Below, one piece after another: positions 18,245-61,419 of a stretch of 64,000 nucleotides of DNA. This DNA comes from an uncultured delta proteobacterium (GTDB taxonomy: Bacteria > Desulfobacterota > WTBG01 > CAIYCZ01 > CAIRTM01). Location of the stretch: positions 82,479 through 146,478 of the forward strand of contig CAVRBJ010000022.1 of the NCBI GenBank assembly GCA_963718965.1, read 5' to 3'. Below the pieces are notes generated by a model. That model worked only from the letters and a program-made list of their open reading frames with translations. It was not told the DNA's origin and searched no databases. The position numbers and the translations under genes are program-made. How positions within the stretch are numbered: the stretch's first letter is position 1; every line of letters starts with the position of its first letter.

Positions 18245-18407
18245 GTGTCTGAACAAAAAGTCATATCTTTGCAGGTTGTGTTAAGACCGGAAGAAACCGC
18301 TGGGTTTCGTACCTCAAACCAACCGCGCAAAAACAATTGCTTGTGAAAAAGTACAGGCATAAGGGCGAACCCGACAAATACATGGTTCCGGGTTTTCGTT
18401 CATCCAC
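18245..18407. mobile_element. MITE-like element, copy A (163 bp, terminal inverted repeats GTGTCTGAACAAAAAG / GTGGATGAACGAAAAC)
   Basis: ~85% identical (inverted orientation) to 61255-61419; ends are imperfect inverted repeats; no coding capacity. Confidence 0.6.
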
Positions 18408-18463
18408 TAACTACATGGTAAGCATCACCGGGTGTCGAGTCAAATTATTTATCATGCAGAGCG

Positions 18464-18499
18464 TTAAAAAAAGAGGCGTGCACCCTTAGATGCACGCCC
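18464..18499 (-). terminator. Candidate intrinsic terminator downstream of the TPR gene
   Basis: Minus-strand hairpin GGCGTGCA...TGCACGCC followed by CTCTTTTTTT. Confidence 0.45.
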
Positions 18500-18659
18500 T
18501 GCATGATAGTGATGGCAGAAAAATATTCGTCAAGAGAATCGGATAAAAACAGGCAGAGTGGGCGCATACAGTGCATTCTGAACCCGCATCACCAAGAAGC
18601 ATGCTGCCCGAACAATCCATGTCGTCCCACGGCGCAGCAGCATATCAGCACGATTGAGC

Positions 18660-19379
18660 CTATTTGCCTTTTTTGGGGCAGAGGCTGTCAACCTTGATCT
18701 GGGCAAACTGTTTCTGCCCGGACAGGGGGTTCTTTTCAAGGAACTCTTTATACTGATTGCAGGCCTTCTGCCTGTCGCCGGCCAATTCAAATACGCGGGC
18801 AAGATTCAGCGCAGCAGCACTCCCGCCATCAGACTGGGTATCGTTTTTCTGTTTTTCAAACCACTCTGCAGCCTGCTTAAAATCACCCTTTCCTTCAAAG
18901 GCATAGCCGATGCCCTCATAGCCTGCAGAGCGCAGATACTGAAGTGTTCCGTGGGCGGCATCAAGAAACTCCCTGAAATAGCCGATGGCTTCATCGTATT
19001 TTTTAAGGCTGTAGGCACAGTTACCCTCATACAGAAGGGCCATTGTGCCGGAGGTGGTGCTGCCATGCTTTTCCTTCACCTCTTTGAACTGAGCCAGGGC
19101 CTTTTCATACAGTGCCGTCTGAGCCCCGGCAGCCTTGCTGTCGGCAGGCGCCGTCATGGTGCTCATGGCGGCATAAAACATATTGAGGGAATCCCGCTCC
19201 GCCCGTGCCTTCATGGTGCTCCAGGCCAGAACTGCGGCAGCAACTACCATAACGGCGAGAGCGATGGAGCCGATTTGCCGGGCATTCTGCTCCACATACT
19301 CCCGTACAGTAATCCACAGTGTTATCGGGTTTTCAGCATCCATCAGTTTCTTCTTCGGCTTCACCTTAATCTTTGCCAT
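18660..19379 (-). CDS. Membrane-anchored TPR-repeat protein (YfgM-like)
   Basis: One N-terminal transmembrane helix followed by TPR-like repeats (YEKALAQFKEV..., EAIGYFREFLD...). Confidence 0.65.
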   Translation of the reverse strand: MAKIKVKPKKKLMDAENPITLWITVREYVEQNARQIGSIALAVMVVAAAVLAWSTMKARAERDSLNMFYAAMSTMTAPADSKAAGAQTALYEKALAQFKEVKEKHGSTTSGTMALLYEGNCAYSLKKYDEAIGYFREFLDAAHGTLQYLRSAGYEGIGYAFEGKGDFKQAAEWFEKQKNDTQSDGGSAAALNLARVFELAGDRQKACNQYKEFLEKNPLSGQKQFAQIKVDSLCPKKGK

Positions 19380-19464
19380 ACCTTAGCCGCCTCTCCTGCT
19401 GCTGTTAGTTCTTGTTCCCGTAATATGTCCAATACGGAAAACGTGCGCTGCGCTTTCCGCAATT

Positions 19465-20004
19465 TCAGTTTTCAGCCGTAAGATACGGCGCAAAGCGTTC
19501 ATATTTCTTCGGGCCGATACCTCCGACGTTTTTCAGCTCACCGATATTCCGAATGCCGCCGCTGCGGTCGCGGTAGTCGACTATAGCCTGTGCGGTGATC
19601 AAGCCCATACCGGGTATCAGCGCCAGTTCCTCAGCCGTTGCAGTTGCAAGGATTACCGGAAGGAAGCAGTGCATCCTCGCCTGGGCGCTCATGGACCCGA
19701 TGGAAACCTTCCCGTCGACAACAATTCTGCTGCCGTTTGGCACATTCCAGCTGCGAGCCGCTGCCTCCGGCAGGGGGGCCAGGGCTTCTCCCGCGTCAAG
19801 CAGCTGCCCCAGCTGTTGGGGGCTGCCATAGCTGTAGATGCCAGGCGACCGCACAGCGCCCGCAACTTCATAGGCATACTGCTTCCGCGGTGATTGCGGT
19901 GATACCGGCTCGCCCGGGGCCAGCACCTGCCAGCCGGCCCTGCACAGCATCAGCGCAAGCAGGGAGCATAGTACCATAAGCTGCTCTCTGTTGTACAGAG
20001 CCAT
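19465..20004 (-). CDS. ComEA-like helix-hairpin-helix DNA-binding protein
   Basis: C-terminal AEELALIPGMGLITAQAIVDYRDRSGGIRNIGELKNVGGIGPKKYERF HhH tandem. Confidence 0.8.
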   Translation of the reverse strand: MALYNREQLMVLCSLLALMLCRAGWQVLAPGEPVSPQSPRKQYAYEVAGAVRSPGIYSYGSPQQLGQLLDAGEALAPLPEAAARSWNVPNGSRIVVDGKVSIGSMSAQARMHCFLPVILATATAEELALIPGMGLITAQAIVDYRDRSGGIRNIGELKNVGGIGPKKYERFAPYLTAEN

Positions 20005-21594
20005 TTATTCAGCCTCTCCCTTAATCTCGTCTTTGAGCAGCTTGTAGGTGATGCTGTCGGTAAGGGCCTGCCAGCTTGCTTCGATAATATTTTCCGACAC
20101 GCCGACCGTGCCCCACCGGTCCTGCCGGTCACCGGTTTCGATGAGCACCCGCACCTTTGATGCCGTGCCTTCCCCTCCGGTCAGCACGCGCACCTTATAG
20201 TCGATGAGGTGCACCTGCTTCAGCTCGGGGTAGAACTTCTCAAGGGCCTTGCGCAGGGCATTGTCAAGAGCGTTCACCGGGCCATTGCCCATGGCTGCCG
20301 TATGCTCTATCTTGCCGCCTACTTTTACCATGATTGTTGCCTCGGACACGGGCTCGGCCTCTTCCTTTTTTTCATTGATGACACGAAACCCCACGAGGTC
20401 GAAATAGCGCTTCTTCACCCCCAGAGCCTTGCGCATGCGCAGCTCAAATGAAGCCTCGGCGCCTTCGAATTGAAACCCGTGGCGCTCCAGGTCTTTCAGG
20501 TCGGCAAGTATTTCCTTCACCAGCGGGTCGTGGCTTTCAATGTCGATATTAAACTGCTGGGCCTTCTGCAGGATATTGGCGCGGCCGGACTGGTCGGAAA
20601 CCAGTATCCGCTGCGTGTTGCCTACGCGCTCCGGGGATATATGCTCATAGGTATCGGAGCGGCGCTGAACAGCGCTCACATGCACGCCCGCCTTGTGCGC
20701 AAATGCGCTTGAGCCCACAAACGGCTGGTGCTTGTTGTGGGGCAGGTTGGCCAGTTCATAGACAAACCGCGAGAGCTCTGAAATTTTCCGCAGCTGCTCA
20801 TCGCTTATGCAGTCCATGCCCATCTTGATTTTCAGGTTGGGGATGATGGAGCAGAGGTTGGCATTGCCGCACCGCTCGCCGCAGCCATTGATGGTTCCCT
20901 GCACCTGCGTGCAGCCGCACTCAACTGCGGCAAGGCTGTTGGCAACGGCCAGATCGCTGTCATTGTGCGCATGAATGCCCAGGGGCGCGTCAATCTCCTG
21001 CCGCACGGCGCTGAGTATCCGGTGAATTTCATAGGGCAGCGTTCCGCCATTGGTGTCGCACAGCACCAGGCAGTCGGCGCCGCCGCTGAGGGCGCCGCGC
21101 AAAATGCTTATGGCATAGTCGGGGTGTGCCTTGTACCCGTCGAAAAAATGCTCGGCGTCGAAAAAAACTGTAGGCACATGCCGCTTGAGATAGGCTATCG
21201 ACTCCTGAATGAGCCGCAGGTTGTCATCAGGGGATATCCTGAGCACACCCTTTATATGCATGTCCCAGGACTTGCCGAAAATAGTCACGGCCTCTGTCCG
21301 GGCATTGATAAGATCGTTGAGGTTTTTATCTTTTTCAACCGCTGCGCCCGGCTTTGCCGTGCTGCCGAAGGCTGTAACGATTGCGTTTTTCAGGCGGCAG
21401 TTTTTGACTTCCTTGAAATACTGAAAATCCTTCGGGTTTGAGCCGGGCCAGCCGCCCTCGATATAGTGCATGCCAAGCTCGTCAAGCCGCTGCGTGATGC
21501 GAAGCTTATCCTCGATGGAAAAGGAAATATCTTCGGTCTGGTTGCCTTCCCTGAGCGTTGCGTCATAGAGACAAATCTGCTTCATAGTATGCAT
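20005..21594 (-). CDS. cimA: (R)-citramalate synthase / 2-isopropylmalate synthase-family enzyme
   Basis: [27 protein letters not shown]..., HMGL-like TIM barrel plus LeuA dimer regulatory domain; 529 aa. Confidence 0.85.
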
Positions 21595-21853
21595 CTTTCA
21601 TAGAAAAATTCGGGATGGCTGAAATCATAGCACAGCTGCTTCAAAAGAAAAAGCCCGCAGCAAAAAAACCCTGTGGGCCGTAAACCTCGTATCGCAATCA
21701 CAGTGCGTCAGCATCAATGTCCGGAGCAAGAGAGCCCCGGGAATGGTGCGGCCCGGTACTTCCCCTCGTGCAAAAGAATATTGTCAATCCCGTTAAGCAA
21801 CAGAAAGACCTCGAATACGGCAACGACATGCCAGAGAGTCGACACCCGTGTCA

Positions 21854-22315
21854 TCAGGGTGGCACCGCCGCTTTGACGACAATTTTTTTTACCGCCGAAG
21901 GCTGGCCGTCAACGGAAACGCCGGGCATATGGGCGTCGGAGGGCAGCATGACCGCAAACATGCCCTGTTGCAGCAGCAAAAAATCGGCATTCCCCTGATA
22001 AAACTGAACGTCGCGGCCCTCATCATAGGGCCCGTCTGGTTTCAGCGACATGGCCGGCGCATGGCCCATAAGCTCCCTGCCCCGCACTACATACTGCACG
22101 TCGATATACCGCCTGTGCGTTTCAAGCCTGCAGTCCTCCATCGGACGGGTCATATACTCATTTACAAGGGCATACAGGCTCTGCCCCTTCAGCTCATACT
22201 TACCGGGCGGCAGCTGCGCTGTGTTCTCACTCTTCAGCCAGCGCAGGGCAAACGCTATATTCTCATGAAGCAGCATGCTGAAGCTTTCATGCTCAAGACT
22301 GTCAACAACCATCAT
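21854..22315 (-). CDS. YhcH/YjgK/YiaL (DUF386) family protein
   Basis: ~150 aa; conserved GQSLYALVNEYMTRP...HRRYIDVQYVVRG region. Confidence 0.7.
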   Translation of the reverse strand: MMVVDSLEHESFSMLLHENIAFALRWLKSENTAQLPPGKYELKGQSLYALVNEYMTRPMEDCRLETHRRYIDVQYVVRGRELMGHAPAMSLKPDGPYDEGRDVQFYQGNADFLLLQQGMFAVMLPSDAHMPGVSVDGQPSAVKKIVVKAAVPP

Positions 22316-22532
22316 TAGTTTCCGTATGTATTTTTCTGAACATGCAGCTACCTGCGTCATTACGAAAATAAGGAGTACAAAAAACTCTTTTATCCTTAAT
22401 ACCGGCTTTCGGCGGTATGACAGTTCAGTAGCTCTGTGATTAAAAAACTGTATTCCAGCGAAAGCTGGAATACAGTTTTTGCATTCTTTTCACTATGGTG
22501 TTGTATGAGCAGCCACCACTCGGTGCCTGTTG

Positions 22533-23873
22533 CTACTCAAGGCTCTCGGCAGCCACAAGCTTGTATACCTCGCCGGTTCTGCCGACAGGGCCGAGTTTCC
22601 TGCTGGTCAGCAGGTACAGCTCGCCGTCTTCACCCTGGCCAAAGCTCAGCAGAAATCTGCCGAGCTTCCCCGCCCGTCCGCATTCATACTGCACATTTGC
22701 GGTCTTCACCTGCCACAGGCCGCCGACTCCTTCGACGGCAATAAGCAGCGAGCCGTCAGGACGGATAAAGCTTGACGACCAGTCGCCAAATACATACTTG
22801 CCCGCAAGGGCTGCTATGGCGCTTCCGCGGTAAACATATCCGCCGGTCACTGACCTGCCGGTAATGGAGCCGTTATCGCCGGGATGGCCGTACACAATGA
22901 TCGGGTCGATAAGGGGTTCGCCGCTGCTGCCGTTATCCGGACAGCTTGCAAGGGGCTCAGTGGCTTTGTCTTTGTTAAAGCAGCTCGTGCCTTCCTTGAT
23001 GTTCCAGCCATAGTTGCCGCCTGCGGTCACAATATTTATTTCTTCATACAGGCTTTGGCCCACATCGCCGCAGAAAAGCCGATTGTCGCCGCCTCGGTCA
23101 AAAGAGAAACGCCAGGGATTGCGAAAGCCATAGGCAAAAATTTCCTCTTTTTTATCCGGTTCGCCGGCAAAAGGATTTCCGGGAGGTATGGCTGCCGTGC
23201 CAGGCCCGCTCACATCGAGCCTGAGAATTTTCCCCAGCAGTTTTGTCGTGTCCTGGCCATTGCCGGTTCCCTCAGTGTGGCCCGTGCCCACATCATTGGC
23301 ATTGCCTCCATCGCCGATACCGATGTAGAGAAACCCATCAGGGCCGAAGGAAAGCTGGCCGCCATTGTGGTTTGCCTGCGGATGCGGCACATCAAGCAGC
23401 ACCTTCTCGCTGTCGGCATCGGCTTTATTCGCATCGGCAGCAGAGACCAGAAACTCTGACACCCGGGCATTTGAATGAAAGTCCGGCGGATCGGTCGGCT
23501 TGAGAGCGGCACTATAGAAAATAAAAAAGCGGCCGTTTGTCGCGTAATCAGGGTGAAACACCAGGCCCAGAAGGCCGCTTTCGTCATAGGCTGAAGTAAG
23601 TTTAACCATCCTGCTTTTGATGTCCAGAAACGGCTCAGCAGCTGCGCTGCCGTCAGTTTTTATTATTTTAATGATGCCCTTTTGCTCTGTGATAAACAGC
23701 CTGCCCGAACCGTCGGGCGGCGCTGCGAGCGCCGTGGGATGGGTAAGTCCGCCTGCAATGCGTTTAAGCTGCAGTGTGTACGCAGGCTCTGATTTTGGCT
23801 TGCATCCGGCTGCGGAAAAAATGATGCAGGCTGCGCACAGAGAAAAAAGAACACAAATTTTTTTCATCCTCAT
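22533..23873 (-). CDS. PQQ-dependent sugar (glucose/sorbosone) dehydrogenase-family beta-propeller lipoprotein
   Basis: MRMKKICVLFSLCAACIIFSAAGC lipobox; NHNGGQLSFGPDGFLYIGIGDGG and FAYGFRNPWRFSFD motifs; SD GGGGAG before the ATG. Confidence 0.8.
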   Translation of the reverse strand: MRMKKICVLFSLCAACIIFSAAGCKPKSEPAYTLQLKRIAGGLTHPTALAAPPDGSGRLFITEQKGIIKIIKTDGSAAAEPFLDIKSRMVKLTSAYDESGLLGLVFHPDYATNGRFFIFYSAALKPTDPPDFHSNARVSEFLVSAADANKADADSEKVLLDVPHPQANHNGGQLSFGPDGFLYIGIGDGGNANDVGTGHTEGTGNGQDTTKLLGKILRLDVSGPGTAAIPPGNPFAGEPDKKEEIFAYGFRNPWRFSFDRGGDNRLFCGDVGQSLYEEINIVTAGGNYGWNIKEGTSCFNKDKATEPLASCPDNGSSGEPLIDPIIVYGHPGDNGSITGRSVTGGYVYRGSAIAALAGKYVFGDWSSSFIRPDGSLLIAVEGVGGLWQVKTANVQYECGRAGKLGRFLLSFGQGEDGELYLLTSRKLGPVGRTGEVYKLVAAESLE

Positions 23874-24109
23874 AGTCTCCCCCTTAAAAAAATGAACAGT
23901 TTCAGCTGTCGCCCTACTGAGGCCAGGCACTGCCAGTCTGCCGCAGGAGCAGCCCATACAATACAAGTATGTTGTATGCAGGGATGTTTTACAATCTTTT
24001 TTATCGCCCATGCAGTTTAAGAATGTATACGCTGACTATCTATGGCAGCTCAGTTTCCTTAAGGAGAGGACAGGGTTTGGGGGGTTACTAAATCAAGCGC
24101 AAAAAGCGG

Positions 24110-26331: not shown

Positions 26332-26547
26332 GAATATCTCCTTTTTGTATAAACTCCTAGAGCAGTGAATATTAATGCTCCCGTACATAGTCAAACAAAC
26401 TGTCTTTGCAAATCCGCAGCGGCAGACACCTTGCAATGGCGCACGCCCGGACTGTTTTCGACGGAATAAACTTTAGCATGTTTTGAAAAAAAAATTAAGG
26501 TATAATGAGCATATTATTAAAATGAACTGAAAACAGGGGCGCAGAGG

Positions 26548-28205: not shown

Positions 28206-28332
28206 GCCGGACAAAGCGAAGCGTGTCCGGCGATCTCGCAGACATTCTGCAAAGATCAGGTTCTTTGTCCAGCCTACGGTTTTTTCGCCCCTCTATCATG
28301 TGTTTCTGTATTAAGTGCGGCGTCGCGGAAAA

Positions 28333-28378
28333 GAAGGGACAAAAAATTCCCCTTTAGCAAAGGGGGAGGGTTTAGGCA
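28333..28378. repeat. Double-hairpin repeat, partial copy 2 (first hairpin only)
   Basis: AATTCCCCTTTAGCAAAGGGGGAGGGTTTAGG matches the left half of the 273-395 element. Confidence 0.5.
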
Positions 28379-30012: not shown

Positions 30013-33000
30013 CTACAGCATGCACACCGTATCGCACACAGGCTGACCATTGCCGCCGCAGCCGGGGTCTGGGTCGCACACATCGCCTATGCCATCACTG
30101 TCGGCATCAAGCTGATAGTAATTACAGATGGCCGGGCAGTTATCATGTGCACTATCATGGGAGTCATAGTCGGAATCAGTCTGCCCCTCACAGGTTGGCT
30201 GGCCGCACCCGTCGCCGCAGCCGGGTGTCGTGTCGCACACATCACCTATTGCTGTCGCCATCGGCATCAAGCTGAAGCGGATTGGCAATATCCGGGCAGT
30301 TATCAAGAACATTTAAAATACCGTCATTATCCGTATCGCATGACTGCTCGCAGGCAGGCTGCCCTGCACCGCCGCAACCCGGATCCGGGTCGCATATATC
30401 CCCTATGCCGTTGCCATTGGCATCGAGCTGATGCACATTGCAGACGTTCGGGCAGTTGTCAGCGGCATCAGCCTACCCATCGCCGTCTGTATCAATCTGG
30501 CTCTCACAAACAGGCTGGCCGCAGCCTGTGCCGCAGCCGGGTGACGGGTCGCACACATCGCCTATGCCGTTGCCATCGGCATCAAGCTGCTGGGGGTTGG
30601 CAATGGCCGGGCAGTTGTCTGAGGCATTTGAGAATACCGTCGCCGTCTTTATCACTTCCGACATTAGAGGTAAATTTGCAAAGCTGCTTGCGCAGCCCTC
30701 AAAAGCCCAAACGTTTTTTGTAATATAAGGGGATATGCACCTATTGGCTGGAAATGGATTATAATTACCCTCAAAATATGCCGCAGTCAAACGAGGACAA
30801 TTAGAAAACGCTGCCCCCGGCTTCTTAATCAGCCCCCCAGGAGGCGGACCACCACAATAAGGTTCTCCGGTCTCATCATCGTACATCTCCCAACAACATT
30901 CACAACCAGCACTCAAAATTAAACTCGCCGGTATGAACACGGTGGTCAATGCGGGTACTGAAAACGCATAAGCCCCAATTCTTCTTACCGGCAGGCCTGC
31001 TATGGTATTGGGAATTACAAGAATTTCGGCAGACCCGGTATATCTGGTGATTGTGGCTGTATTGTCGTACGCTATTATGTAGTTAAAATCCCCGGCAACT
31101 CCAATTGACGTGGTGGTTGTGGGTTGCATGGTTGTTGTCGTAGTTGCTAGAAACCGTAGTGGTCGTAGTCGGCTGGATGGTAGTCGAAACGCTTGTCGTC
31201 CCGGTGACAGAAGTTGTCGTTGATGTGGTCAGCGCGTTAAAAGCATTAACGAGGGTATAAGCCCCTATGGAGCTTGAGCTGTAATGCCGCACCGCGACAT
31301 AATAGGTGCCGGCTGACAGCGTTCTCGTAATTGAAAAATTTAATCCTTCGCCATCATCGTCATCGGATTCGATATCGGTACATGCGCTGTCTTTTAAATA
31401 GCCATACGTGTCGGTGGACCCGGTTGTATACACATTCAGCGTTCCGTATGCGGGAATATTAATCGCGAAATAATCATAGTCGCCGGCAGGATTTATAGAA
31501 GCACTTATGGAGCTGTTGAGCGGCATGGCAAAGGCTGCTGCGCAACTGTTGCCGTAATCGTCGAGAATCAGTCGACGTTGTGGTCGGCTGAGTTGTTGTA
31601 GTTGTAGTTGTTACAGATGGATCAAACACCGCCGCAGGATAGCCGTACCAGGGATTGGTAAACCCGGTGGCACCGGCAACATAGTACACTTTAAAGCCGC
31701 TTGCGCAGTTATTAAAAACATATACCCCATTGTCGGCGCATTCCCGTAAAAATAGGCGGAGGCCAAACCTGGTGCAGCCATACAAACGCATTATCGCCAA
31801 TGCTCGTAACACTGGCAGGAATGTTAATGCTGGTCAAACCTGTGCAATGCCCAAAACATTGGGTCCAATAGCTTATAACGCTGCCAGGAATAGTCACACT
31901 GGTCAAACCTGTGCATCTCATAAAATGCTCGCCTGTCCCCAAAGCTTGTAACGCCGTTAGTATCCTGGTCACATCTGGTCAAGCCTGGTGCAATAGATAA
32001 AACGCCATTTTGTCCGGAATACTCGTAACGTTGCTCGGGATTTTAAGCTGGCCAAACTGCGCAACTGGAAAAAGCACAGGCCCAATAATTGTAACATTCT
32101 GAGGAATGGTCATACTGGTCAAGCCGGTGCAGCCAGAAAACGCGTTATGCCCAATATTCGTTACGCTGCTCGGGATGTAACGCTCGGTTAACCCGCTGCT
32201 ATCCTTGAAAATAGCACTGATCCCAATGGTTACTACCGGCATGCCGTCTATGGTATCTGGTATTACAACCGCTCCACCGGAGCCGGTATAGCCGGTGATG
32301 GTGACAGAGCCAGCTGATACTGTATAGGTAAACGGAAATAATGCCGTCGTATAGCCATACCACGGATTGGTAAACCCGGTGGCTCCGGCACGATAGTACA
32401 CTTTAAAACCGCTTGCGCAGCCACCGAAAACAATGTCGCCAATGTCGGTGCATTCCCGTAAAAATAGGCGGCAGCAAACTGTACAAAGGAAAACCCCCAC
32501 TTCCCAATACTTGTAACACTGGCCGGAATGATAATACTGGTCAAACCGGTGCAGTATAAAACTTCCGTGCCCGAGACTTGTAACATTGTTCGAAATGATC
32601 GCATTGGTCAAGCCTGAGCAATAGGCAAACGCAGCCTGTTCGATTCTGGTAACGCCGTTCAGGATGGTAACGCTGGTCAAACCGGAACATCCCATAAACA
32701 TGTAAGAGTAATGCTCGTAACGCTTTCGGAATGGTAAGCTGGTTAACCCTGCGCAGAAGGCAAACGCGGCTGTTCCAATACTGGTAACACTGTCGGGAAT
32801 GGTCAAACTGGTCAAACCGCAACCTTGAAACGCCCTTATCCCAATGCTCGTAACGCTGTTTGGGATGATAATCCCGGTCAAGTTACTGCAACCTTGAAAT
32901 GCCTCCAACCCAATGCTTGTAACGCTGCCCGGTATGGTAGCGCCGGTCAAGCTGCTGTTGTTCAAAAAAACCTGATCCCCAATACTTACTACCGGCATGC

Positions 33001-33193
33001 CGTCAATAGTATCGGGAATGGCAACATCTCCGCCGGGTCCGGTATAGCCGGTGATTGCGACCGCACTGCCTGAGACCGTGTAGGTAAAATCCCCATATTG
33101 CTGGGCAAAAGCAGATGAGTACAGAAACAGACAACCAATCACTGGCAGCAGGAAAATAGATTTTTTGAACTGCATAGAGAACCCCTCCTCCAC
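30013..33193 (-). CDS. Large secreted surface protein with signal peptide, BspA-type leucine-rich repeats, a pre-peptidase C-terminal (PPC) domain and thrombospondin-type-3-like Ca-binding Cys-rich repeats; fragmented into at least eight frames
   Basis: MQFKKSIFLLPVIGCLFLYSSAFA signal; repeated GLTSxTIPxSVTSIGxxAFxxC units; GDYDYFAINIPAYGTL...GTYYVAVRHY PPC; DADGNGIGDVCDPSPGCG TSP3-like; ~150-bp internal direct DNA repeats (31620-31760 vs 32350-32470). Confidence 0.55.
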
Positions 33194-33422: not shown

Positions 33423-33607
33423 GCCAAGACCCAGTAACTTCCAAACCGGCAGTTCCGCTGTCCTAACACTTTATAGACCGGTAACTTTGCGCTTTACCCG
33501 TGAAGGTAAATTGCTCTTTTCGGTTCGCACTTGAGTACTAATTTAGCACACTTTTTCAGTTTGTATATAAAAAGTCTCAGCAATAAAATTATTTATTACT
33601 GCAAAAT

Positions 33608-33860: not shown

Positions 33861-33968
33861 CCCCACAAAAGAGGGCATAAAAATTCCCTCTTTAGCGAAG
33901 AAGGTTAGGGGGATTTGTCATGTAGCAAAAAATAACCATGTATCCCCCTTTTTCAAATGGGGATGAAA
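33861..33968. repeat. Double-hairpin repeat, copy 3
   Basis: CCCCACAAAAGAGGG...TTCCCTCTTTAGCGAAGAAGG...TATCCCCCTTTTTCAAATGGGGATGAA aligns along the full length with copy 1. Confidence 0.7.
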
Positions 33969-34188
33969 CAGGCTTGTTTATTGTAAAATTAAATTTTATA
34001 TGATGCACAGGATTGGACATCAGGATGACTCCGGCATAGACTTAAACATACAACTATCCAAACAGCAGCAGAATATGGTAAATGAATTGTTATCCAAAAT
34101 ATGAGCTTGCCGCGTCCACCGTGGCGGACTCGAAATGAGACTTTATTTATCTGTCATGACTGGTGTTCTCATACTTAAAGGTATACGC

Positions 34189-40678: not shown

Positions 40679-40919
40679 AGAACCCTCCACATATAACAAC
40701 GGTTGCCTTTATAAGATTGCCTATAATTGTTCAAAGCGGTTTTTTTTTCAAGAAAATTCAAGACGCCCGGCTAAACTCCTGCTCGCATGAAGTCAAATAT
40801 AAGCACATCCAACCGGCTTGACATGGTGTGTTGACTCTCGATTATATTGAAAATTAAAAACAATCCTGCTAAAAGCATGCTAAAATTATATCCAAAGCAT
40901 CATGGGCTGCGCAAACAAC

Positions 40920-41060
40920 CAGTAGATCATCACATTTGATATTATAAGTTGAGATCACCCTCCCCTTAATCCCCTCACATCAAGGGAGGGGAAAATTGTT
41001 GACTCCCTCTCCCCTGGTGGGAGAGGGTTGGGGTGAGGGAGCCTATAAAATCATATGTGT
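40920..41060. repeat. ~140-bp direct repeat, upstream copy flanking the BON gene
   Basis: AGTAGATCATCACATTTGATATTATAAGTTGAGATCACCCTCCCCTTAATCCCCTC...CTCCCTCTCCCCTGGTGGGAGAGGGTTGGGGTGAGGG, ~90% identical to 42045-42185. Confidence 0.7.
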
Positions 41061-41167: not shown

Positions 41168-42046
41168 ATGCAAACAAACAGAATTTTTTTAAAAGGCACG
41201 ATTAGCATCAAACGTATATGCCTGTCTGGACACGCCGCTGCAGCAGTTCTTTTACTCCTGCTGTGCGTAATTTTGACAGCCTGCAGCCGTGGGCCCTCAG
41301 ATGAAGAGCTGCAAAAAAAAGTCGCTGCAGCACTTGATAATGATACGCAGCTACAGGGGCAAAAACTTGACATTGCCGTCAAGGAAGGCGAATTGACTAT
41401 TGCGGGTGAAGTTCCCACAGACGCAGAACGTCTGAAGGCCTATAAAAAAGCCGCTGACACGCCGGGAGTGAAAAAAGTCAATGACCGTATGAAGCTGCAG
41501 CCACCACCTCCGCCTCCCCGGGTGTATACCCTGCCTGCCGGAACCACGGTGCGGGTGGTTATGCTGAGTGGCGTCGATTCCAGCGTCAACAGGGTTGGGC
41601 AGACCTTTCCATCCAGCCTCGTCTTCGCCCTGACCTCCGGCGATACGGTCGTCATCCCCGAAGGAACCGAGGTGATGGTTATGCTGGCTGAAGCTCAGCA
41701 GGCAGGCCGTTTGCAAGGTGCAAGCCAGCTTGAAGTAACCCTGAAAAGCATCACCTGGCTTGGAACGACCTATGAGCTTAAAAGCGAAACAGTGTCAGCC
41801 GTGGGTGAGTCTCGCGGAAAACAGTCAGCCAAGCGAATCGGCATTGCTACAGGTGTTGGCGCAGCCGTGGGAGCCATTGCCGGCAAAGGCAAGGGAGCGC
41901 TTATCGGAGCAGGTATCGGAGCAGCAGGATCTACCGCCTACCAATTGGCGACAAAGGGGCCGTCAGTGCGGATCCCCGCACAGACCAAGCTCGATTTCAA
42001 GCTGCGTGACGCAGTAACTATTACACTTCCGCCAAAAGAACACTAG
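41168..42046 (+). CDS. Secreted BON-domain protein with a C-terminal glycine-zipper (YMGG-like) segment
   Basis: Signal/transmembrane N-terminus; BON region DNDTQLQGQKLDIAVKEGELTIAGEVPTDAERLKAYKKAADTPGVKKVNDRMKL; GIATGVGAAVGAIAGKGKGALIGAGIGAAGS zipper. Confidence 0.7.
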   Translation: MQTNRIFLKGTISIKRICLSGHAAAAVLLLLLCVILTACSRGPSDEELQKKVAAALDNDTQLQGQKLDIAVKEGELTIAGEVPTDAERLKAYKKAADTPGVKKVNDRMKLQPPPPPPRVYTLPAGTTVRVVMLSGVDSSVNRVGQTFPSSLVFALTSGDTVVIPEGTEVMVMLAEAQQAGRLQGASQLEVTLKSITWLGTTYELKSETVSAVGESRGKQSAKRIGIATGVGAAVGAIAGKGKGALIGAGIGAAGSTAYQLATKGPSVRIPAQTKLDFKLRDAVTITLPPKEH

Positions 42047-42185
42047 TAGATCATCACATTTGAAATTATCAGTTGAGATCACCCTCCCCTTAATCCCCTC
42101 CTATCAAGGGAGGGGAAATATTGGGCTCCCTCTCCCCTGGTGGGAGAGGGTTGGGGTGAGGGGACCAACAAAATCAAATGTGAAG
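42045..42185. repeat. ~140-bp direct repeat, downstream copy (starts on the BON gene stop codon)
   Basis: Direct repeat of 40920-41060. Confidence 0.7.
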
Positions 42186-42399: not shown

Positions 42400-42445
42400 G
42401 AAAAGAGGGGCCGTCAATATTCCCCCTTTTTCAAAGGGGGATTAA
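42400..42445. repeat. Double-hairpin repeat, internally deleted copy 4
   Basis: AAAAGAGGGGCCGTCAATATTCCCCCTTTTTCAAAGGGGGATTA: start motif joined directly to the second hairpin. Confidence 0.45.
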
Positions 42446-42478
42446 ATAGTCCGATTCCCTCTTTTACATGATACTTTA

Positions 42479-51644: not shown

Positions 51645-51811
51645 CAGGAGTGTATGTTCTCAAATGCCGGTAAAGAGTTTATCGGCAATCACCTGTAGCC
51701 GCGCCCGTCAAACAATATTTGACATCCCCTGCCGCCTGGGTTAATACATTATGACCTGATTCGTTCCCGAACGAAAAATTTTTTATTTGACACAAAAAAA
51801 TACGTCTATTC

Positions 51812-51913
51812 AATCCCCCTTTGAAAAAGGGGGATACAGGGGGATTTTTTAAATCCTGACAAATCCCCCTAACCCCCTTTGCTAAAGGGGGAATTTTTTC
51901 GCCCCCTCTTTTG
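51812..51913. repeat. Double-hairpin repeat, copy 5 (inverted orientation)
   Basis: Reverse complement aligns end to end with copy 1. Confidence 0.7.
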
Positions 51914-51927
51914 TAGGATTTTGTACA

Positions 51928-51960
51928 TAGGTTTTCGTTCAGCCACTAATTCCGCTTGCA
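51928..51960. repeat. Solo terminal repeat of the MITE-like family (TTTTCGTTCAGCCACTAATTCC)
   Basis: Matches the ends TTTTCGTTCAGACACTAAGTACC (61401-61423) and TTTTCGTTCATCCACTAACTAC (18392-18413). Confidence 0.4.
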
Positions 51961-52380: not shown

Positions 52381-52429
52381 TACCGCAGGCCTGATTTCAC
52401 AAACCCCATTATCCTTTAGCAAGTTACCT

Positions 52430-54127: not shown

Positions 54128-54215
54128 GAAGTATTGAAACTATCTGCCGTTTCTGCTATAGTTTTAAATTCTAAAGTCGCCATGTAAACCTCACACCAGT
54201 AAGGAGAACACACCC

Positions 54216-54779
54216 ATGATAGATACGACCGCTATCAGGAAAAACCTGAAGCTGCTTATTGACAACGACCCCTGGATCGTTGTGGATTTTCAGTTCGTCA
54301 AGCCTGGCAAAGGGCAGGCCTTCACCCGCACAAAGCTGAAAAACCTGATTTCCGGCAATACCATGGAGCGCACCTATAAATCGGGCGAAAAGCTCGAAGA
54401 GGCCCGCATAGATGAAAATGAAATGGTCTTCCTCTACAGTCAGGGTAAAAACTACACATTCATGGACAATACCACCTACGAGCAGGTCGAGCTTACTGAA
54501 GATCATGTGGGTGATGCCAGGAATTTTCTTGTCGAGAATATGAATGTCGAAGTGCTGTTCTTCGACAGCCGCCCGATCAGCGTCGAGGTGCAGAACTTCG
54601 TGAATCTTCAGATCGTTGAAACCGAGCCTGCAACCAAGGGCGACACGGTCAGCGGCGCCACCAAGCCGGCCACTCTTTCAACCGGACATACGGTCAATGT
54701 GCCGCTTTTTGTCAATAACGAGGAGTGGATCGTCATCGATACGCGCAACGGATCATATGTGGAGCGGGTAAAAAAATGA
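54216..54779 (+). CDS. efp: Elongation factor P
   Basis: VKPGKGQAFTRTKLKNLISGN with the conserved modifiable Lys in the KPGKG loop; 187 aa. Confidence 0.9.
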   Translation: MIDTTAIRKNLKLLIDNDPWIVVDFQFVKPGKGQAFTRTKLKNLISGNTMERTYKSGEKLEEARIDENEMVFLYSQGKNYTFMDNTTYEQVELTEDHVGDARNFLVENMNVEVLFFDSRPISVEVQNFVNLQIVETEPATKGDTVSGATKPATLSTGHTVNVPLFVNNEEWIVIDTRNGSYVERVKK

Positions 54780-55696: not shown

Positions 55697-55697
55697 C

Positions 55698-56510
55698 ATG
55701 CTGCGCAAAAAGCCGTACCTGAAAATACTTGCCCATAAGCCTGATATTTTCAGCGCACTACCTGCCGAGGTGCTGAGCGAGGAGGCCGCAGACCGGCTCC
55801 GGGAGATTCCCCGCCTTGCCGTTGCCGAAATCACCGGCCCGGCAGACCTGCCTGCCCTGCGCGAGCTGCTGAAGCACCACAGGCCCGATGGGCTGCTGCC
55901 CACATTTGCCTATACCGGCACTGAATACGGCGATTGGGCGCAGCTAAGTGATATGGCGGCAGCGCTGAAAAAAAAATTCGAGAAAGAGCTCAACATTTAT
56001 GTTGCCGAACCCGTTGTGCTGGGCTCTCCCGCGCTTTGGAAAGCGCTGCGGGAGGCTCATGAAGGGGAGGTCCGGAGGCGTTTCGGTTTTCCCTGCTCAT
56101 GCCTGGGGTGCCGGCTGTACAGCTACGTGCTTCGCGTTCCCCTGTGCAAAACAATCGATGCCCGTTTTTTCATACCGTCGCTGCACGGCCTGGTTCAGCG
56201 CGGCTGCCCGGCACATACAACGACTATTGAAAGAAAATATTTCACTTTTCTTATGTCCGGCTACGGCATTGATGTCTGGCATCAGGGTTTGAATTATGAG
56301 CAGACAGGTGACGAGGGCCCCTGCCTGTCATGCGTGCTTATGCCTGAGGAAGGCAGCAATATATCGCAGGACAAACTGATCCGGTACTTCGAGCTATTCG
56401 CCCTTCCCGCAGCAGGCGGCATACTGAGCCTTGCGGTCTCCGGCGCGCAGGCTGACTATGCACGGATTGTTTTTCAAGCAGCACAGCAGAAAAAGGCTGC
56501 CCGGCCATAA
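55698..56510 (+). CDS. Cys-rich hypothetical protein translationally coupled to epmA
   Basis: 271 aa; FPCSCLGCRLYSYVL ... GCPAH ... CLSC; TGAcATG junction with epmA. Confidence 0.5.
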   Translation: MLRKKPYLKILAHKPDIFSALPAEVLSEEAADRLREIPRLAVAEITGPADLPALRELLKHHRPDGLLPTFAYTGTEYGDWAQLSDMAAALKKKFEKELNIYVAEPVVLGSPALWKALREAHEGEVRRRFGFPCSCLGCRLYSYVLRVPLCKTIDARFFIPSLHGLVQRGCPAHTTTIERKYFTFLMSGYGIDVWHQGLNYEQTGDEGPCLSCVLMPEEGSNISQDKLIRYFELFALPAAGGILSLAVSGAQADYARIVFQAAQQKKAARP

Positions 56511-56513
56511 TAT

Positions 56514-56560
56514 TTGTCAGGCTGTAAAAAATCCCCCTGTATTCCCCTTTTTCAAAGGTG
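56514..56560. repeat. Double-hairpin repeat, partial copy 6 (second hairpin)
   Basis: GTCAGGCTGTAAAAAATCCCCCTGTATTCCCCTTTTTCAAAGGTGGAATGAA. Confidence 0.5.
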
Positions 56561-56653
56561 GAATGAATAGGCTTATTTTTTAATGTAAAACTCACTATTG
56601 CCCCCTTGTTTGAGGGCCGCTGCACTACAGCCAAACCAGAGGAGCGGGACGAT

Positions 56654-57558
56654 ATGGATTTCAATCAGGACACCTTTGCACGGATTGTCGAAAGCCTTCA
56701 TGATGGCCTGTATTTCGTCGATCCAGACAGGCGCATCACCTACTGGAACAAGGCCGCAGAGCGGATCACCGGCTATACGGCCGCCGAAGTGCTCGGGAGG
56801 TCATGCTCGGACAATATCCTGACGCATGTTGACGCCGACGGAAACCATCTTTGCACAGCCATCTGCCCTCTTGCCGCCACCATTGCCGATGGCGCTGCGC
56901 GCAGCTCGGAAATCTATCTGCACCATAAGGACGGCCACAGGATTCCCATATCCGTGCGCACCAGCATACTGACCGATACCGCAGGCAGCGTCATCGGCGG
57001 CATTGAACTGTTCACCGACATCAGCAATCAGGCTGTCAGCCAGCTGCGAATACGGGAACTGGAAAAAATGGCTCTGATCGACACCCTCACTCAGCTGCCC
57101 AACAGAAACTATCTTGAAAAAGAGCTGTACAATAAGTGTGAAGAAAAAAAACGCCTCAACCTGCCCCTTGGCATCCTTTTCATTGATATTGATCACTTTA
57201 AAAAATTCAATGACACCTACGGGCACGATGTCGGCGACAAGGTTCTTGCCTGCGTTGCCAGAACTTTTACCGCCAACTCAAGGTCTTTTGACATCTACGG
57301 CCGCTGGGGGGAGAGGAATTTATAGGCATCATACATATTGCCACTGGCGATGAAATGGAGCATCTGGCAGACAGGCTGCGCATGCTGGTTGAAAACTCCT
57401 ATATCATGCATGAAGGGAAAAGGCTCCTGGTTACCGTTTCTCTCGGGGCCACCCTTCTGCGGGATGATGACACGATTGAGAGCCTGATCAAAAGGGCGGA
57501 CGGGCTTCTGTATACAAGCAAACAGGCCGGGCGGAATCGTTATTCTTTCAGCCCGTGA
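56654..57558 (+). CDS. PAS-GGDEF diguanylate cyclase; frameshift at a G-run near 57310
   Basis: PAS RITYWNKAAERITGY; GGDEF domain with RWGGEEF(IGI) spanning the frame break. Confidence 0.85.
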
Positions 57559-57687
57559 GTAGGGATCAGGTGCCAGGTTTCGGGGTTCAGGTGGCAGTTT
57601 TCGTAGGTCGGATTAAGCGGAGCGAATCCGACACAATGTGTTTTTAATTTTCAAATTCAAATCAAAAGAACCTGCACATTAACAAAC

Positions 57688-57727
57688 AAAGGCCGTTCCT
57701 TTTCAGGATCGGCCTTTTATTTGTTTT
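57688..57727 (+). terminator. Intrinsic terminator after the diguanylate cyclase gene
   Basis: AAAGGCCG ttccttttcaggat CGGCCTTTTATTTGTTTT. Confidence 0.55.
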
Positions 57728-57879
57728 AAAACTTCCGCTTACCTACTACATCGTGCAAACCTTCTCACAGGCAATCTGCCCGCCGCAACCGGGTGTTGTA
57801 TCGCATCAACGTAAGCAATTATTATTTTTATTTAAAACATATAAAGCACTAAACGGTAATTTTAGGCACTTTTGAGCCA

Positions 57880-57990
57880 TTGGAGATTAGGGCAGGGATC
57901 AGGTGATAGGAATGAAAAATCAGAGTTCGGGGGTCAGGGCGCAGGGATTGTAAGGATCAAAATTCATAATTCGCAAAGAAGGGCTTATAG
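57880..57990. repeat. Degenerate GGxTCAGG-type short-repeat array
   Basis: GGGCAGGGATCAGGTGATAGG...AGAGTTCGGGGGTCAGGGCGCAGGGATTGTAAGGATCAAAATTCA; a related array at 57560-57620. Confidence 0.35.
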
Positions 57991-57991
57991 C

Positions 57992-59320
57992 CTACTTTAC
58001 CGTAAAATCTGCGCACAGAGAGTCGGGGTATTGGCCGTAGATAATAACATTTACTTGCGTATCGCCCTTTTCCACCCTGAACGGGTTGAAGGCGTAAAGG
58101 CCGACAATAATTCTTGAACCGAGCTTGATTCTGGCCAGACAGTGTATGAAATCAGAATTGAATGCGAGCGAGAAGTTCCCGAAATCAATGCCGCTTTCTT
58201 TATCTGCGCTGATAATGAACGGGACAACATGCACAAAAAACATTCCCACACTGGAAACCTGTGCGGGAATGATTTTCAGGGAGCAGGGAGCTGATTGGCA
58301 TCCTTCATGAATTGTCCAGTCAGTGTCGTCGCAGTCCTGCGGTATGCAGCCTTTGCCGGCAAAATAGCCATCGCCGTCCGCATCGGTACAATTGTCCGAA
58401 GGCCCGCATTGCCCGGCACGCACAGCTCGAACATACAGCTCGTCACCGGAAGAAAAACCGTTCATATCTCCGCTGCGTAACCCCACGAACCACCAGAGGT
58501 CTGCGCCTTCATAGTCGATGGGGACTTTGGTTGACGACCAGTACTCGGACAACTCAGTGTCAGGGAAATAGGCCGTATTGATAGCTGGATTAAAACGGGT
58601 ATAGTCAACTATCGACTGCAGTTCATTCCTGGTGGGGAGCCGCCAGTCGTTTTTGCCCCCAAGAGTGAGGTTTTCACAGTACGCCTTTGCCTTTGCCAGG
58701 GTAACGGCGCCGGAACCTGCTGACTTTTCCCATACAAGGCCGCTGGCGGCATCAGTTATCGTACCATCTCCATTGTCAATAAAGCTATTGACAAACTGCT
58801 CCCCGCGAACAGCGCGAACATAGTAAAAGCCGGTCGATGTATTATCATAGCCGACTGAACCGAAGGAAAAATCCACGGTCCAGGCCTGGCCTGAATCGCC
58901 TGAAAGCAGACTCGACGACCAGTAATTGTCGGCTTCGGTGCCAGGGAAATAGGTCAAATCGATAGTCGGGTTGGGCTGTTCTGATGATAAGGTAACACCG
59001 CTGTCGACAAGCATGGATAATTCCTTAATTGCCGGCAGGCGCCAGTCAGTATAGCCACCCAGGGTAAGATTATTGCAGTAGTCAACAGCCTGCTGCCTGC
59101 TGTACACTCCCTCAGTAATCCCCGGAGCCGTTGCCTTCTGCCATAAAAGACCGGTGACATTATCCCGGATAATGCCATTGCCGAAATCCGTGTACGAATG
59201 AGGGTTGCAGGTGAAATCAGTGGATTGTCCGGTATCGGGCACAGGACCGGCAAAGGCAGCAGAGCCGCAGGCCAGCAATGCGCACATGAACAGAATGTAT
59301 ATTGATTTACCGAACAGCAT
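57992..59320 (-). CDS. Lipoprotein with two DUF1566 (Lcl C-terminal-like) domains
   Basis: Signal/lipobox LLACGSAAFA; two YTDWRLPAIKELSML / KNDWRLPTRNELQSIV cores. Confidence 0.7.
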   Translation of the reverse strand: MLFGKSIYILFMCALLACGSAAFAGPVPDTGQSTDFTCNPHSYTDFGNGIIRDNVTGLLWQKATAPGITEGVYSRQQAVDYCNNLTLGGYTDWRLPAIKELSMLVDSGVTLSSEQPNPTIDLTYFPGTEADNYWSSSLLSGDSGQAWTVDFSFGSVGYDNTSTGFYYVRAVRGEQFVNSFIDNGDGTITDAASGLVWEKSAGSGAVTLAKAKAYCENLTLGGKNDWRLPTRNELQSIVDYTRFNPAINTAYFPDTELSEYWSSTKVPIDYEGADLWWFVGLRSGDMNGFSSGDELYVRAVRAGQCGPSDNCTDADGDGYFAGKGCIPQDCDDTDWTIHEGCQSAPCSLKIIPAQVSSVGMFFVHVVPFIISADKESGIDFGNFSLAFNSDFIHCLARIKLGSRIIVGLYAFNPFRVEKGDTQVNVIIYGQYPDSLCADFTVK

Positions 59321-59520
59321 GCAGCGACCATTTTTAATAGAGTATTTAAACCATTCTTATAGGTATAGGCACAGGCGCCTGTATGTCAATGAAAATCTCC
59401 CGGTAAACATGTCAGTGGAGAACGGCCCGGACAGGAGAAACGGCACTGCCTGAGAATATCGTAAAAAAAGAGAGGTCGCATTACTCAATGGCGGAGAGAA
59501 TAAAAAAGAGCGGCGCAGCT

Positions 59521-60528
59521 TTAATGTGCTTCACGCACCAATCGCATGCCGACCAGCGTGTAGCGCGTATCCGGCATATTCCAGTTCCGGTATGATGATC
59601 GCGCGTAAAACGGCCAGGTGTGCCACGACCCGCCGCGGCGCACCCGCACCTTACCCGCTGCAGGCCCCTGCGGATCATCAACGGGCGACTGTGCATAGTA
59701 CGTATCGGCATGCCAGTCAGCACACCATTCCCAGACATTTCCATGCATATCATACAGGCCCCAGGAATTAGGTGCAAAACTGCCGGCGGGGGAAGTAAAC
59801 TCAAACCCGTCATGCCCGGTCAGGGCATACTGTTTCCACTGAGGCCAGTTCTTCGTGGTATCGGCATCAAAAACATTTGCCGCCTTCAGCAGCGTGGCCG
59901 GATCATCGCCACTGTAATAACGCGTCCGGGTACCGGCACGGCAGGCATATTCCCATTCGGCTTCGGTGGGCAGCCGGTATTTTTTCCCTTCTTTCCTGCC
60001 CAGCCATGCTGCCATGGCAACTGCGTCATGCCAGGTCACATTGACCACAGGATCATCATCGACCTGTTTAAAGCCCGGATTGCGCCAGGAATACTGCGGA
60101 CTGCGCCCTTCGAAAGCATCCCCCCGACTTGGATTTTTTTGGGTCATAGTCGCGGTTATAGCCATAACCGCCCGTGCCGTCAGCTATGGATTCGGGCGTG
60201 TAGCCGGAGGATTCAAGGAACTTCCTGAACTGACCGACCGTCACCTCATATTGCCCCATGTAGAACGGCCGGGTGATACGTACTTTATGCACGGGCGCTT
60301 CATCGCCAAGAAGAAGAAAGCGCTGACGATCGTACTGCGGATAGGCTTTGGCAAGCTCTTCAGGGGACTCATCACTGCCCATCAAAAATTCACCGGACGG
60401 GATCAAGACGAATTTCATGCCAAGGGAATTTTCAATCTGCCTGGGCAATTCGGCGTCTGACTCAGCCGGCCAGTACCGGAAAGAACAACAGCGCAGCCAA
60501 AAAGGCACATCGATAGTTGATTACGCAT
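59521..60528 (-). CDS. Formylglycine-generating-enzyme (SUMF1/EgtB/PvdO) family protein; two frameshifts
   Basis: YDMHGNVWEWCADW ... RVRRGGSWHTWPFYARSSYRNW; N-terminal signal peptide MRNQLSMCLFGCAVVLSG in a third frame. Confidence 0.75.
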
Positions 60529-60717
60529 GGTATGAAGCCCTACGCACAATTAAAAAATGAGAAACAAAAAACAGAGGTCAGATCAAAAATGAGCTATGAT
60601 GGCTGCATGTGAAACTATCCGGATATGGGGAGCAAAGCGGATATATTCGTCCGAGTGCAGGCACTATAAAATGAGGGCTATTGTGTGTCAAGGCAAATAT
60701 GGGCAGAGATGTTAGGA

Positions 60718-60775
60718 GTCCCTTCATCACCCTCTCCGCCATGTATTGAGGAGAGGGTCAGGGTGAGGTGGCATC
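60718..60775. repeat. GC hairpin + GGGTGAGG tail, diverged member of the 41-42 kb repeat family
   Basis: CACCCTCTCCgccatgtattgaGGAGAGGGTCAGGGTGAGGTGG. Confidence 0.4.
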
Positions 60776-61254
60776 AATTGCGCAATTCTGTGTTTGAAGT
60801 ATGGCTGCCTCATGCTTAATGTGCTCCAGTTACATCTTTCGAACCAGCACATCACCGATATTCCGGCCTTGGGCATTCATCCACAGCTGAAAACTATGCA
60901 GACAATCAAACATTTCCATAGCACCTGCCTTGAAGAATGAAAAAAAATAAATTTTTTTTTATTTTTTGACCTTATATGACAAAACCGGCGGCTATAAGGG
61001 AGACATACAATAACCTTATGTGGAGGCCGTATGAGACAGTATCTGTATCTTTTTTGGGGGTTGGTGCTTGCGGGAATGCTTATTCTAACAGCGGCATACC
61101 CGGAGTGCCGTCAGGCAGCCGCCCTGCAGTATCCTGCAAACCGCGACTATGCAGTGTATGACCAGAACGGTGATCGAATGCTCGTGAGCGGCGCTTATCT
61201 GGAGGCTCAGATAAGCGCTGAGGGAAAGCGGGCAGGCCAAACCCGGTTTTAAGT

Positions 61255-61419
61255 AGTGGCTGAATGAAAACCCGGAACCATACATTTGTTGGGTTCGCCC
61301 TTATGCCGGTACTTCTTCGTAAGGAATTGTTTTTGCGCAGGTTGGTTTGAGGTACGAAACCCAACGGTTTCTTCCGGGCTTAACCCAACCTACACATACA
61401 TGACTTTTCGTTCAGACAC
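61255..61419. mobile_element. MITE-like element, copy B (terminal inverted repeats GTGGCTGAATGAAAAC / GTGTCTGAACGAAAAG)
   Basis: ~85% identical over ~140 bp to the reverse complement of 18245-18407. Confidence 0.6.

Follow-up and report, generated by a model that had tools for sequence, protein, structure and literature searches.

What kind of sequence is repeated, in opposite orientations, at two positions of a 64,000-nucleotide stretch of DNA from an uncultured delta proteobacterium (contig CAVRBJ010000022.1 of assembly GCA_963718965.1; the whole stretch is called the window below), one copy lying just upstream of a gene for a ClpX-like ATPase? We conclude that the repeats probably belong to a family of approximately 164-bp non-autonomous transposable elements (MITEs, for miniature inverted-repeat transposable elements): all testable defining features of such elements are present, a cognate insertion sequence (IS) excepted. 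A first-pass annotation of the window had proposed a non-autonomous MITE mobilised in trans; the MITE part of this proposal is sustained by further copies, flanking duplications, and empty sites, while mobilisation in trans is something we infer, no partner transposase having been found in the searches described below. The two full copies, each bounded by terminal inverted repeats (TIRs), are the following.

18245–18407, plus strand: MITE copy A, 163 bp; left TIR 18245–18260, right TIR 18392–18407.
61256–61419, minus strand: MITE copy B, 164 bp; left TIR 61404–61419, right TIR 61256–61271.

The two inverted stretches are thus present where they had been annotated, their identity being 88.6% over 166 nt (blastn, E 4e-57) instead of the approximately 85% first estimated, and both carry imperfect TIRs, of 16 nt each rather than 15 bp: GTGTCTGAACAAAAAG / GTGGATGAACGAAAAC in copy A and GTGTCTGAACGAAAAG / GTGGCTGAATGAAAAC in copy B. 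Throughout the family, the ends (imperfect TIRs of 16–19 nt) read G(T/A)GCCTGAACGAAAAG ... CTTTTCGTTCAG(N)CAC, and the TIRs are also kept in nine TIR-bearing copies from other sources. With at most three mismatches, the TIR consensus occurs at six sites in the 64-kb window, compared with 0.49 expected, and none of 100 shuffles gave six. Four of these sites are the ends of copies A and B; the other two, 51931–51946 and 51763–51778, delimit a further element.

51763–51946, plus strand: third TIR-bounded element, 184 bp; degenerate left TIR 51763–51778 with a T-run, right TIR 51931–51946.

As had been claimed, neither full copy contains a transposase gene: no credible open reading frame (ORF) was found inside A or B, and the ORFs overlapping them are repeat artefacts. 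Spurious ORFs made by the MITE are 61080–61364 (minus strand, 94 aa, 'MGFVPQTNLRK...'), 61286–61783 (plus strand), and 17930–18346 (plus strand), and copy A lengthens the ClpX-like ORF to an upstream TTG (16475–18256, minus strand).

One danger that the first-pass annotation saw for its own proposal was a larger segmental duplication with common flanks. The likeness of A and B ends at the element borders and the flanks differ, which rules out a segmental duplication for this pair. More generally, chance similarity or local segmental duplication without mobility might be suggested by the fact that the window has no more than two full copies, but the E-value, the unshared flanks, the occurrence of copies in unrelated contexts in many metagenomes, and the empty site in a related genome described below (L022) leave this explanation a negligible probability.

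The call for additional copies was answered by two scans, one with an interior 20-mer over one genome per species, the other with an interior 22-mer over metagenomes. The former yielded a full-length copy with 77% identity in an uncultured Thermodesulfobacteriota metagenome-assembled genome (MAG; locus L005), the window's own species not being among the matches; the latter yielded 15 contigs, all from freshwater samples. Together they contain approximately 17 further copies, placed with nhmmer, in unrelated contexts. All of these are intergenic and occur in both orientations relative to the neighbouring genes, 5' or 3' of them or between convergent genes. Element sizes, three in the window and approximately 17 elsewhere, range from 135 to 184 bp, and five copies have no recognisable left TIR.

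Twelve elements have both ends and allow the flanks to be compared. A 6-bp direct repeat of the form TANNTA is perfect in five of them, namely TACTTA/TACTTA (copy B, L019, and L014), TAATTA/TAATTA (L020), and TAGATA/TAGATA (L025), retains five of six positions in another five (L005, L021, L008, L016, and the 184-bp element of the window), and is weak or absent in two (L013 and copy A). For copy B the repeats are as follows.

61420–61425, minus strand: left flanking repeat, TACTTA on the minus strand.
61250–61255, minus strand: right flanking repeat, TACTTA on the minus strand; on the plus strand it gives the TAA stop codon of a 73-aa ORF.

When the flanks of the 12 elements are compared in different registers, 85% of positions (61/72) agree for 6 bp, 39% for 3 bp, and 4% for 4 bp, the 83% obtained for 2 bp reflecting only the TA at the start and end of the hexamer. 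The central dinucleotide NN agrees within copies at 19/24 positions, compared with 11.3 upon permutation of partners (P ~4e-4), and position 3 of the hexamer covaries between the left and right flanks. A 2-bp TA duplication as made by IS630/Tc1-like elements is ruled out, the central NN being also duplicated and copy-specific; a 3-bp TNA duplication, the geometry of IS1031, is ruled out by the register test. The duplications that the first-pass annotation had sought, 2-bp or other, thus do exist, with a length of 6 bp rather than 2 bp. Judging from the sequences, the TANNTA flanks are a genuine target duplication at a preferred site. A 6-bp duplication and a 2-bp duplication of NN, with TA counted in each end of the element, would give the same sequence and are not distinguishable on these grounds; the flanks of the 184-bp element (TGATTC / TAATTC, 5/6 identical) favour 6 bp.

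Related genomes lack both full copies, which bears on the comparison of presence and absence that had also been proposed, here made between species. The genes concerned are listed first.

16475–18214, minus strand: gene of an AAA+ ClpX-like ATPase, 579 aa (Pfam AAA_2, AAA, ClpB_D2-small).
18415–18443, minus strand: predicted sigma-70-like promoter of this gene, TTGACT-17-TACCAT, assigned by consensus match and conservation.
18474–18499, minus strand: intrinsic-terminator-like hairpin and T-run of the upstream TPR gene; kept in L022 and lying outside the MITE.
61031–61252, plus strand: 73-aa ORF, of the same length in L023, with its stop codon directly adjoining copy B; it and the DUF255 gene are convergent.
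61492–63522, minus strand: DUF255/thioredoxin-domain gene; its stop codon is followed, 72 nt downstream, by copy B.

The closest ClpX-like homologue with DNA to compare is that of L022 (MAG GCA_026388975.1), whose protein is 86% identical and whose locus shows synteny on either side, the TPR gene being again upstream. Its intergenic region aligns through the TPR terminator hairpin, the promoter, and the AGGAG ribosome-binding site (RBS), and the 163 bp of copy A are missing. In the nearest relative by the ClpX-like protein (92%), the two genes are 228 bp apart, which is, by gene spacing, too short for the element. For copy B, locus L023 encodes a DUF255 protein with 87% identity and is syntenic on both sides; there the DUF255 gene and the convergent 73-aa ORF lie 17 bp apart, with a single AGCTTA where the window has TACTTA, the element, and TACTTA. 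In a third relative (P0124 contig) the same two genes overlap by 4 bp according to their coordinates, and copy B is absent. Since both copies are missing from syntenic loci of relatives, both are insertions. A conspecific empty allele would read ...GTAGTTA joined to CAGGCAG... at copy A, or ...GCGGTACTTAAAACC... at copy B, with one hexamer. Apart from the MITE, L023 has nothing that corresponds to the approximately 65 bp (61426–61491) separating copy B from the stop codon of the DUF255 gene, which contain a T-run and then an imperfect GC-rich hairpin, TTTTTTTTCGGCATGACGGCGAAAGCCGGCATCC.

What, then, is the mobile unit? The first-pass annotation had described a solo TIR-like end at 51928–51960 (19 nt at 51930–51948, a 95% match); it proved instead to be the right end of the two-ended 184-bp element, the left TIR of which is GTTCCCGAACGAAAAA, with the T-run known from the full copies coming after it. 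This element is a hybrid: its interior (approximately 51782–51926) is a copy of an unrelated repeat. A second case is a 135-bp element at L025 193–327 (IMG/VR UViG_3300009484_000041), where the same TIRs, within perfect TAGATA flanks, enclose another unrelated interior. With the 164-bp type, three unrelated interiors are found within the same TIRs; therefore, the TIRs define the mobile unit, and such variation of the interior is what one would expect of ends recognised by a transposase acting in trans. Inside the L025 element, a left and a right TIR abut to form a 31-bp palindrome, GTGCCTGAACGGGGTTTTCGTTCAGGCAC, a minimal TIR-only unit.

The repeat captured in the hybrid forms a family of its own, approximately 145 nt long, with two G/C-run hairpins (ATCCCCCTTTGAAAAAGGGGGAT ... 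CCCCCTTTGCTAAAGGGGG); it is also present at L019 4092–4253, with a MITE inserted at its end. In the window it is found at the following positions.

265–408, 33861–33982, and 51782–51926: full copies of the double-hairpin repeat.
28327–28366, 42401–42456, 56508–56590, and 10164–10190: partial copies of the double-hairpin repeat.

The interior of the 164-bp type is non-coding and contains GTTGGGTT twice and AACCCAAC twice, forming nested hairpins that resemble repetitive extragenic palindromes (REPs), plus a small variable stem. It reads GTAGGTTGGGTT...AACCC / GTTGGGTT...AACCCAACCTAC, an inverted doublet of GTAG-headed palindromes; REPs characteristically have a GTAG head followed by a palindrome. 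In the predicted fold, the first forward motif pairs with the second reverse one (F1 with R2) and F2 with R1, and pairing of the TIRs makes a single long hairpin of the whole. Among TIR-bearing copies, pairwise identity is 0.85–0.94 in the hairpin blocks (biased for the block through which the metagenome copies were picked), 0.85 in the TIRs, and 0.57–0.73 in the spacers. The variable stem is replaced at L005 870–910, and at the equivalent position in L008 and L020, by another perfect GTAG-headed palindrome, GTAGAGACAGGTTTCAAACCTGTCTCTAC or GTAGGGGCAGGTTTGAAACCTGCCCCTAC, two variants whose differences are compensatory; the palindrome may represent a further type of REP-like hairpin nested in the MITE.

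The hairpin motif is not confined to the family. The F2–R1 hairpin with its CTAC tail is identical over 24–28 nt in three cyanobacteria and a Syntrophobacterales MAG, and 88–93% identical over 27–33 nt in Moraxella bovis plasmids, Calothrix and Kovacikia replicons, and Desulforapulum pHRM2a. Wherever the flanks were examined (L002, L006, and Moraxella), there is another hairpin close by, and in L002 the two form a heads-out inverted doublet. No name for this cross-phyla GTAG hairpin was found in the literature searched. The hairpin, GTTGGGTTTCGTACCTCAA(A/C)CCAACCTAC with the GTAG head on the other strand, was located as follows.

61288–61390 and 18277–18375 of the window: within copies B and A.
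L001 5955–5982: same hairpin.
L002 3500–3592: same hairpin.
L006 7482–7624: same hairpin.
L004 3808–3840: same hairpin.
L026 130–225: same hairpin.
L027 2480–2530: same hairpin.

Such an interior raises the question whether the whole element is of the kind known as REP doublets forming hairpins (REPINs), that is, whether nested GTAG hairpins are moved as single-stranded DNA by a REP-associated tyrosine transposase (RAYT, of the Y1/HUH type), the outer repeats being an extra layer of palindrome. The heads-out doublet of GTAG plus GTTGGGTT...AACCCAAC hairpins, the same motif occurring as doublets in cyanobacteria, Moraxella plasmids, and Desulforapulum pHRM2a, the conservation of the hairpin motifs at the level of the TIRs, and the copies with no recognisable left TIR all speak for it. 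HUH enzymes (IS200/IS605, RAYT), however, leave no flanking duplications, whereas the element has copy-specific 6-bp ones, and the same TIRs enclose interiors without the hairpin motif; for these two reasons, a REPIN/RAYT origin is unlikely for the whole element. Moreover, the 8-mer motif occurs in the 64-kb window only inside the element and not as a dispersed REP, and no RAYT gene was seen among the ORFs next to the copies, although no systematic search for RAYTs was made.

A structured non-coding RNA or cis-regulatory leader that has been duplicated in the genome, with the inverted ends as its closing helix, would also account for a conserved fold. Copy B folds better than shuffled sequences on both strands (z –3.2 and –3.5), copy A lies within a predicted 5' leader, and the interior blocks are strongly conserved. 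However, both strands fold equally well, as in any palindrome; no Rfam match was obtained at the gathering threshold or with E up to 10; and the 30 consensus pairs are mostly invariant, with changes on both sides in 4/30, all in the TIR helix, and an unfavourable covariation term of +1.12 (RNAalifold). Copies occur in either orientation and on the 5' as well as the 3' side of genes, or between convergent ones, and the flanking duplications and empty sites indicate insertion. We regard this explanation as highly improbable.

Returning to a MITE mobilised through its TIRs, which transposase could have acted on it? BLAST of the MITE left end against plasmids gave, with E ~1 for the match alone, 21/22 matching nucleotides at the exact left terminus of an annotated IS5-family IS from Polymorphobacter megasporae (NZ_CP081849.1, 185269–186195), TTA followed by GTGCCTGAACGAAAAGT in the MITE corresponding to TTA followed by GAGCCTGAACGAAAAGT in the IS. 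A chance match is improbable, since the aligned stretch coincides with the end of an IS, is correctly oriented, and is bordered by TTA in both sequences. The IS, with TTA outside each end, runs from GAGCCTGAACGAAAAGTA to GGGCTC, the MITE left end being G(T/A)GCCTGAACGAAAAGTC with TTA before it; the transposase of the IS belongs to NF033580 transpos_IS5_3, with DUF4096 and DDE_Tnp_1 domains, and its relatives include IS12528 of Gluconobacter, with GAGCCC ends and a TAA duplication. Within the IS5 family, the IS1031 group is characterised by GAG ends together with a 3-bp TNA duplication (ISfinder). Most MITE copies end in GTG, but L020 has GAG and begins with GAGCC like those ISs. The MITE thus resembles the IS1031-like group in having G(A/T)GCCTGAACGAAAAGT preceded by TTA, nearly the left end of the Polymorphobacter IS, and differs from it in the 6-bp instead of 3-bp TNA repeats and in an interior without homology.

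A partner IS was sought in several ways. Scanning by TIR pattern gave none in the window and, with exact TIR patterns, none in the loci; three scans of IMG/VR and a paired-TIR test there gave none; tblastn with the IS5_3 transposase had no match in the window or any locus; and BLAST of the MITE right end against plasmids returned no partner IS. Thus, of the annotation's suggestion of an IS630/Tc1- or IS5-like transposase with matching TIRs, the likeness of the ends to the IS5 family stands, and the partner transposase was not found. Because the length of the duplication does not fit (6 vs. 3 bp) and no such transposase was found, we class the element as a MITE whose ends are IS5-like, and not as a proven derivative of the IS1031 group.

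Several observations weigh against our interpretation. A transposase with matching TIRs was found neither in the window nor in the 83 loci or IMG/VR; both IS5/IS1031-like elements inspected make 3-bp TNA duplications (TTA and TAA) abutting GAG ends; and the sole IS with a near-identical end is alphaproteobacterial. Copy A has no duplication, its flanks being TGCCTG / TAACTA. The empty sites come from other species, with 84–87% identity, so that the pre-insertion sequence is reconstructed; the copy count for the source organism covers the 64-kb window rather than the genome; and selection of metagenome copies by the interior 22-mer biases the conservation estimate for that block. The observations are also consistent with copy A being the older, more degenerate copy.

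The mechanism that we propose is as follows. The TIRs would be recognised by a DDE transposase whose gene lies elsewhere, most likely an IS1031-like enzyme of the IS5 family, which would paste the element into AT-rich intergenic TANNTA sites and so leave a 6-bp direct repeat. Copy A would have inserted at approximately +1 of the ClpX-like gene, producing a self-folding mRNA leader of approximately 163 nt with the native promoter and RBS intact and with a presumably modest or neutral effect on expression; copy B would have entered at the 73-aa ORF's stop codon, in the gap separating two convergent genes. As the TAA is part of the duplicated hexamer, the length of this ORF is unaltered.

How does copy A affect its neighbour? 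It begins 30 nt upstream of the ATG of the ClpX-like gene (18214, minus strand), the same distance as first annotated, and homologues of exactly 579 aa back this start codon. The sole sigma-70-like site in a scan of 18100–18700 is that at 18443–18415 (minus strand), which in the MITE-free ortholog of L022 reads TTGACT-17-TACTAT. As it ends 7 nt before copy A, transcription is predicted to start at the border of the element, giving a predicted leader of approximately 194 nt, approximately 163 nt of which are copy A. A consensus scan found no outward promoter inside copy A, and in the predicted fold copy A pairs with itself, leaving the AGGAG RBS outside. Thus, copy A had been credited with the promoter or the 5' untranslated region, and the latter holds, whereas the conserved promoter lies upstream and is kept in the empty ortholog. 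Copy A is probably a tolerated leader insertion that may change mRNA stability or translation.

The REP-like interior may matter in another way. In L020 (contig Ga0209450_10190796), a 1168-bp IS110-family IS (138–1305, minus strand of the locus) splits a MITE copy; its point of insertion within the REP-like hairpin is exactly between CAACCCAACCT and ACGCAA, and each junction carries CT. Its 315-aa RNA-guided transposase (NF033542) has ISCro4 (E 2e-42) and IS621 (E 5e-38) as the closest solved relatives, and its left non-coding end (192 nt) contains a 10-bp stem, GTCAGATAGC...GCTATCTGAC, with an internal loop carrying CCCAACCT, which is identical to the left half of the target. From its sequence, this stem-loop has the appearance expected of a bridge-RNA guide. 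REPs are known insertion targets of IS621 and IS1594 (PMC3184786). One may therefore speculate that the conserved REP-like module (GTAG-GTTGGGTT...AACCCAAC-CTAC) is a landing pad for RNA-guided IS110-family recombinases, an idea that comes from one insertion, not a pattern, and to which we give a low probability. If it is true, a MITE mobilised by a DDE enzyme spreads sites into which another IS family, unrelated in its mechanism, can insert, and selection on the module, or use of the hairpins by the host, explains conservation equal to that of the TIRs.

Bacterial MITEs, e.g., Correia/nemis, ERIC, RUP, Nezha, and QMITE2, are 100–250 bp long, with TIRs, direct repeats, and no ORF, and decayed QMITE2 copies that lose an end come to look like REPs (PMC10969869; PMC3184786). 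The present family shares with them the long-hairpin fold, intergenic AT-rich targets, and insertion beside promoters or 3' ends, and its five copies with an unrecognisable left TIR fit the pattern of decayed copies; it differs from the named ones in its sequence, unrelated as far as checked, in the 6-bp TANNTA flank, and in the cross-phyla REP-like hairpin interior. Chunjie from Geobacter uraniireducens (178–235 bp, 21-bp TIRs, and 9-bp direct repeats; PMC3184786) also comes from a former deltaproteobacterium, is intergenic, has many partial copies without TIRs or direct repeats, and is tolerated within transcription units (PMC3184786; PMC10969869), but it is set apart, by its dimensions only, from our approximately 164 bp, 16–19-nt TIRs, and 6-bp repeats. 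With REPs and REPINs the family shares the GTAG-headed inverted doublet and the splitting of the L020 copy by an IS110-family IS, as IS621 and IS1594 enter REPs; unlike REPINs, the whole element has TIRs and flanking duplications, and its motif is not independently dispersed in the window. A literature search by sequence strings gave nothing relevant.

Other features of the window include two direct repeats of approximately 141 nt, 86–94% identical and rich in CCCTCCCC/GGGAGGGG hairpins, which bracket a 292-aa BON-domain/Gly-zipper gene, and a riboswitch.

40918–41059 and 42042–42182: the two direct repeats.
41168–42046: the BON-domain/Gly-zipper gene.
33445–33525, minus strand: c-di-GMP-I riboswitch (Rfam RF01051, 48 bits), upstream of the gene 31979–33193.
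31979–33193, minus strand: gene of a BspA-type leucine-rich-repeat protein, built from 66–69-nt units.

The family is apparently unnamed and of an ordinary kind among bacterial repeats, and the current understanding of MITEs is unchanged by it. For annotation, such repeats yield spurious ORFs and are likely to be mis-annotated by gene callers, and MITE copies may be mistaken for small RNAs or regulatory leaders. With copy A, a MITE between an intact promoter and RBS, the remodelling of a leader by a mobile element becomes open to testing. The family also joins IS5-like TIRs, REP-like hairpins, and an IS110-family insertion, which are usually handled apart, and may be of use in studying the way in which RNA-guided IS110 elements locate targets that are conserved across phyla.

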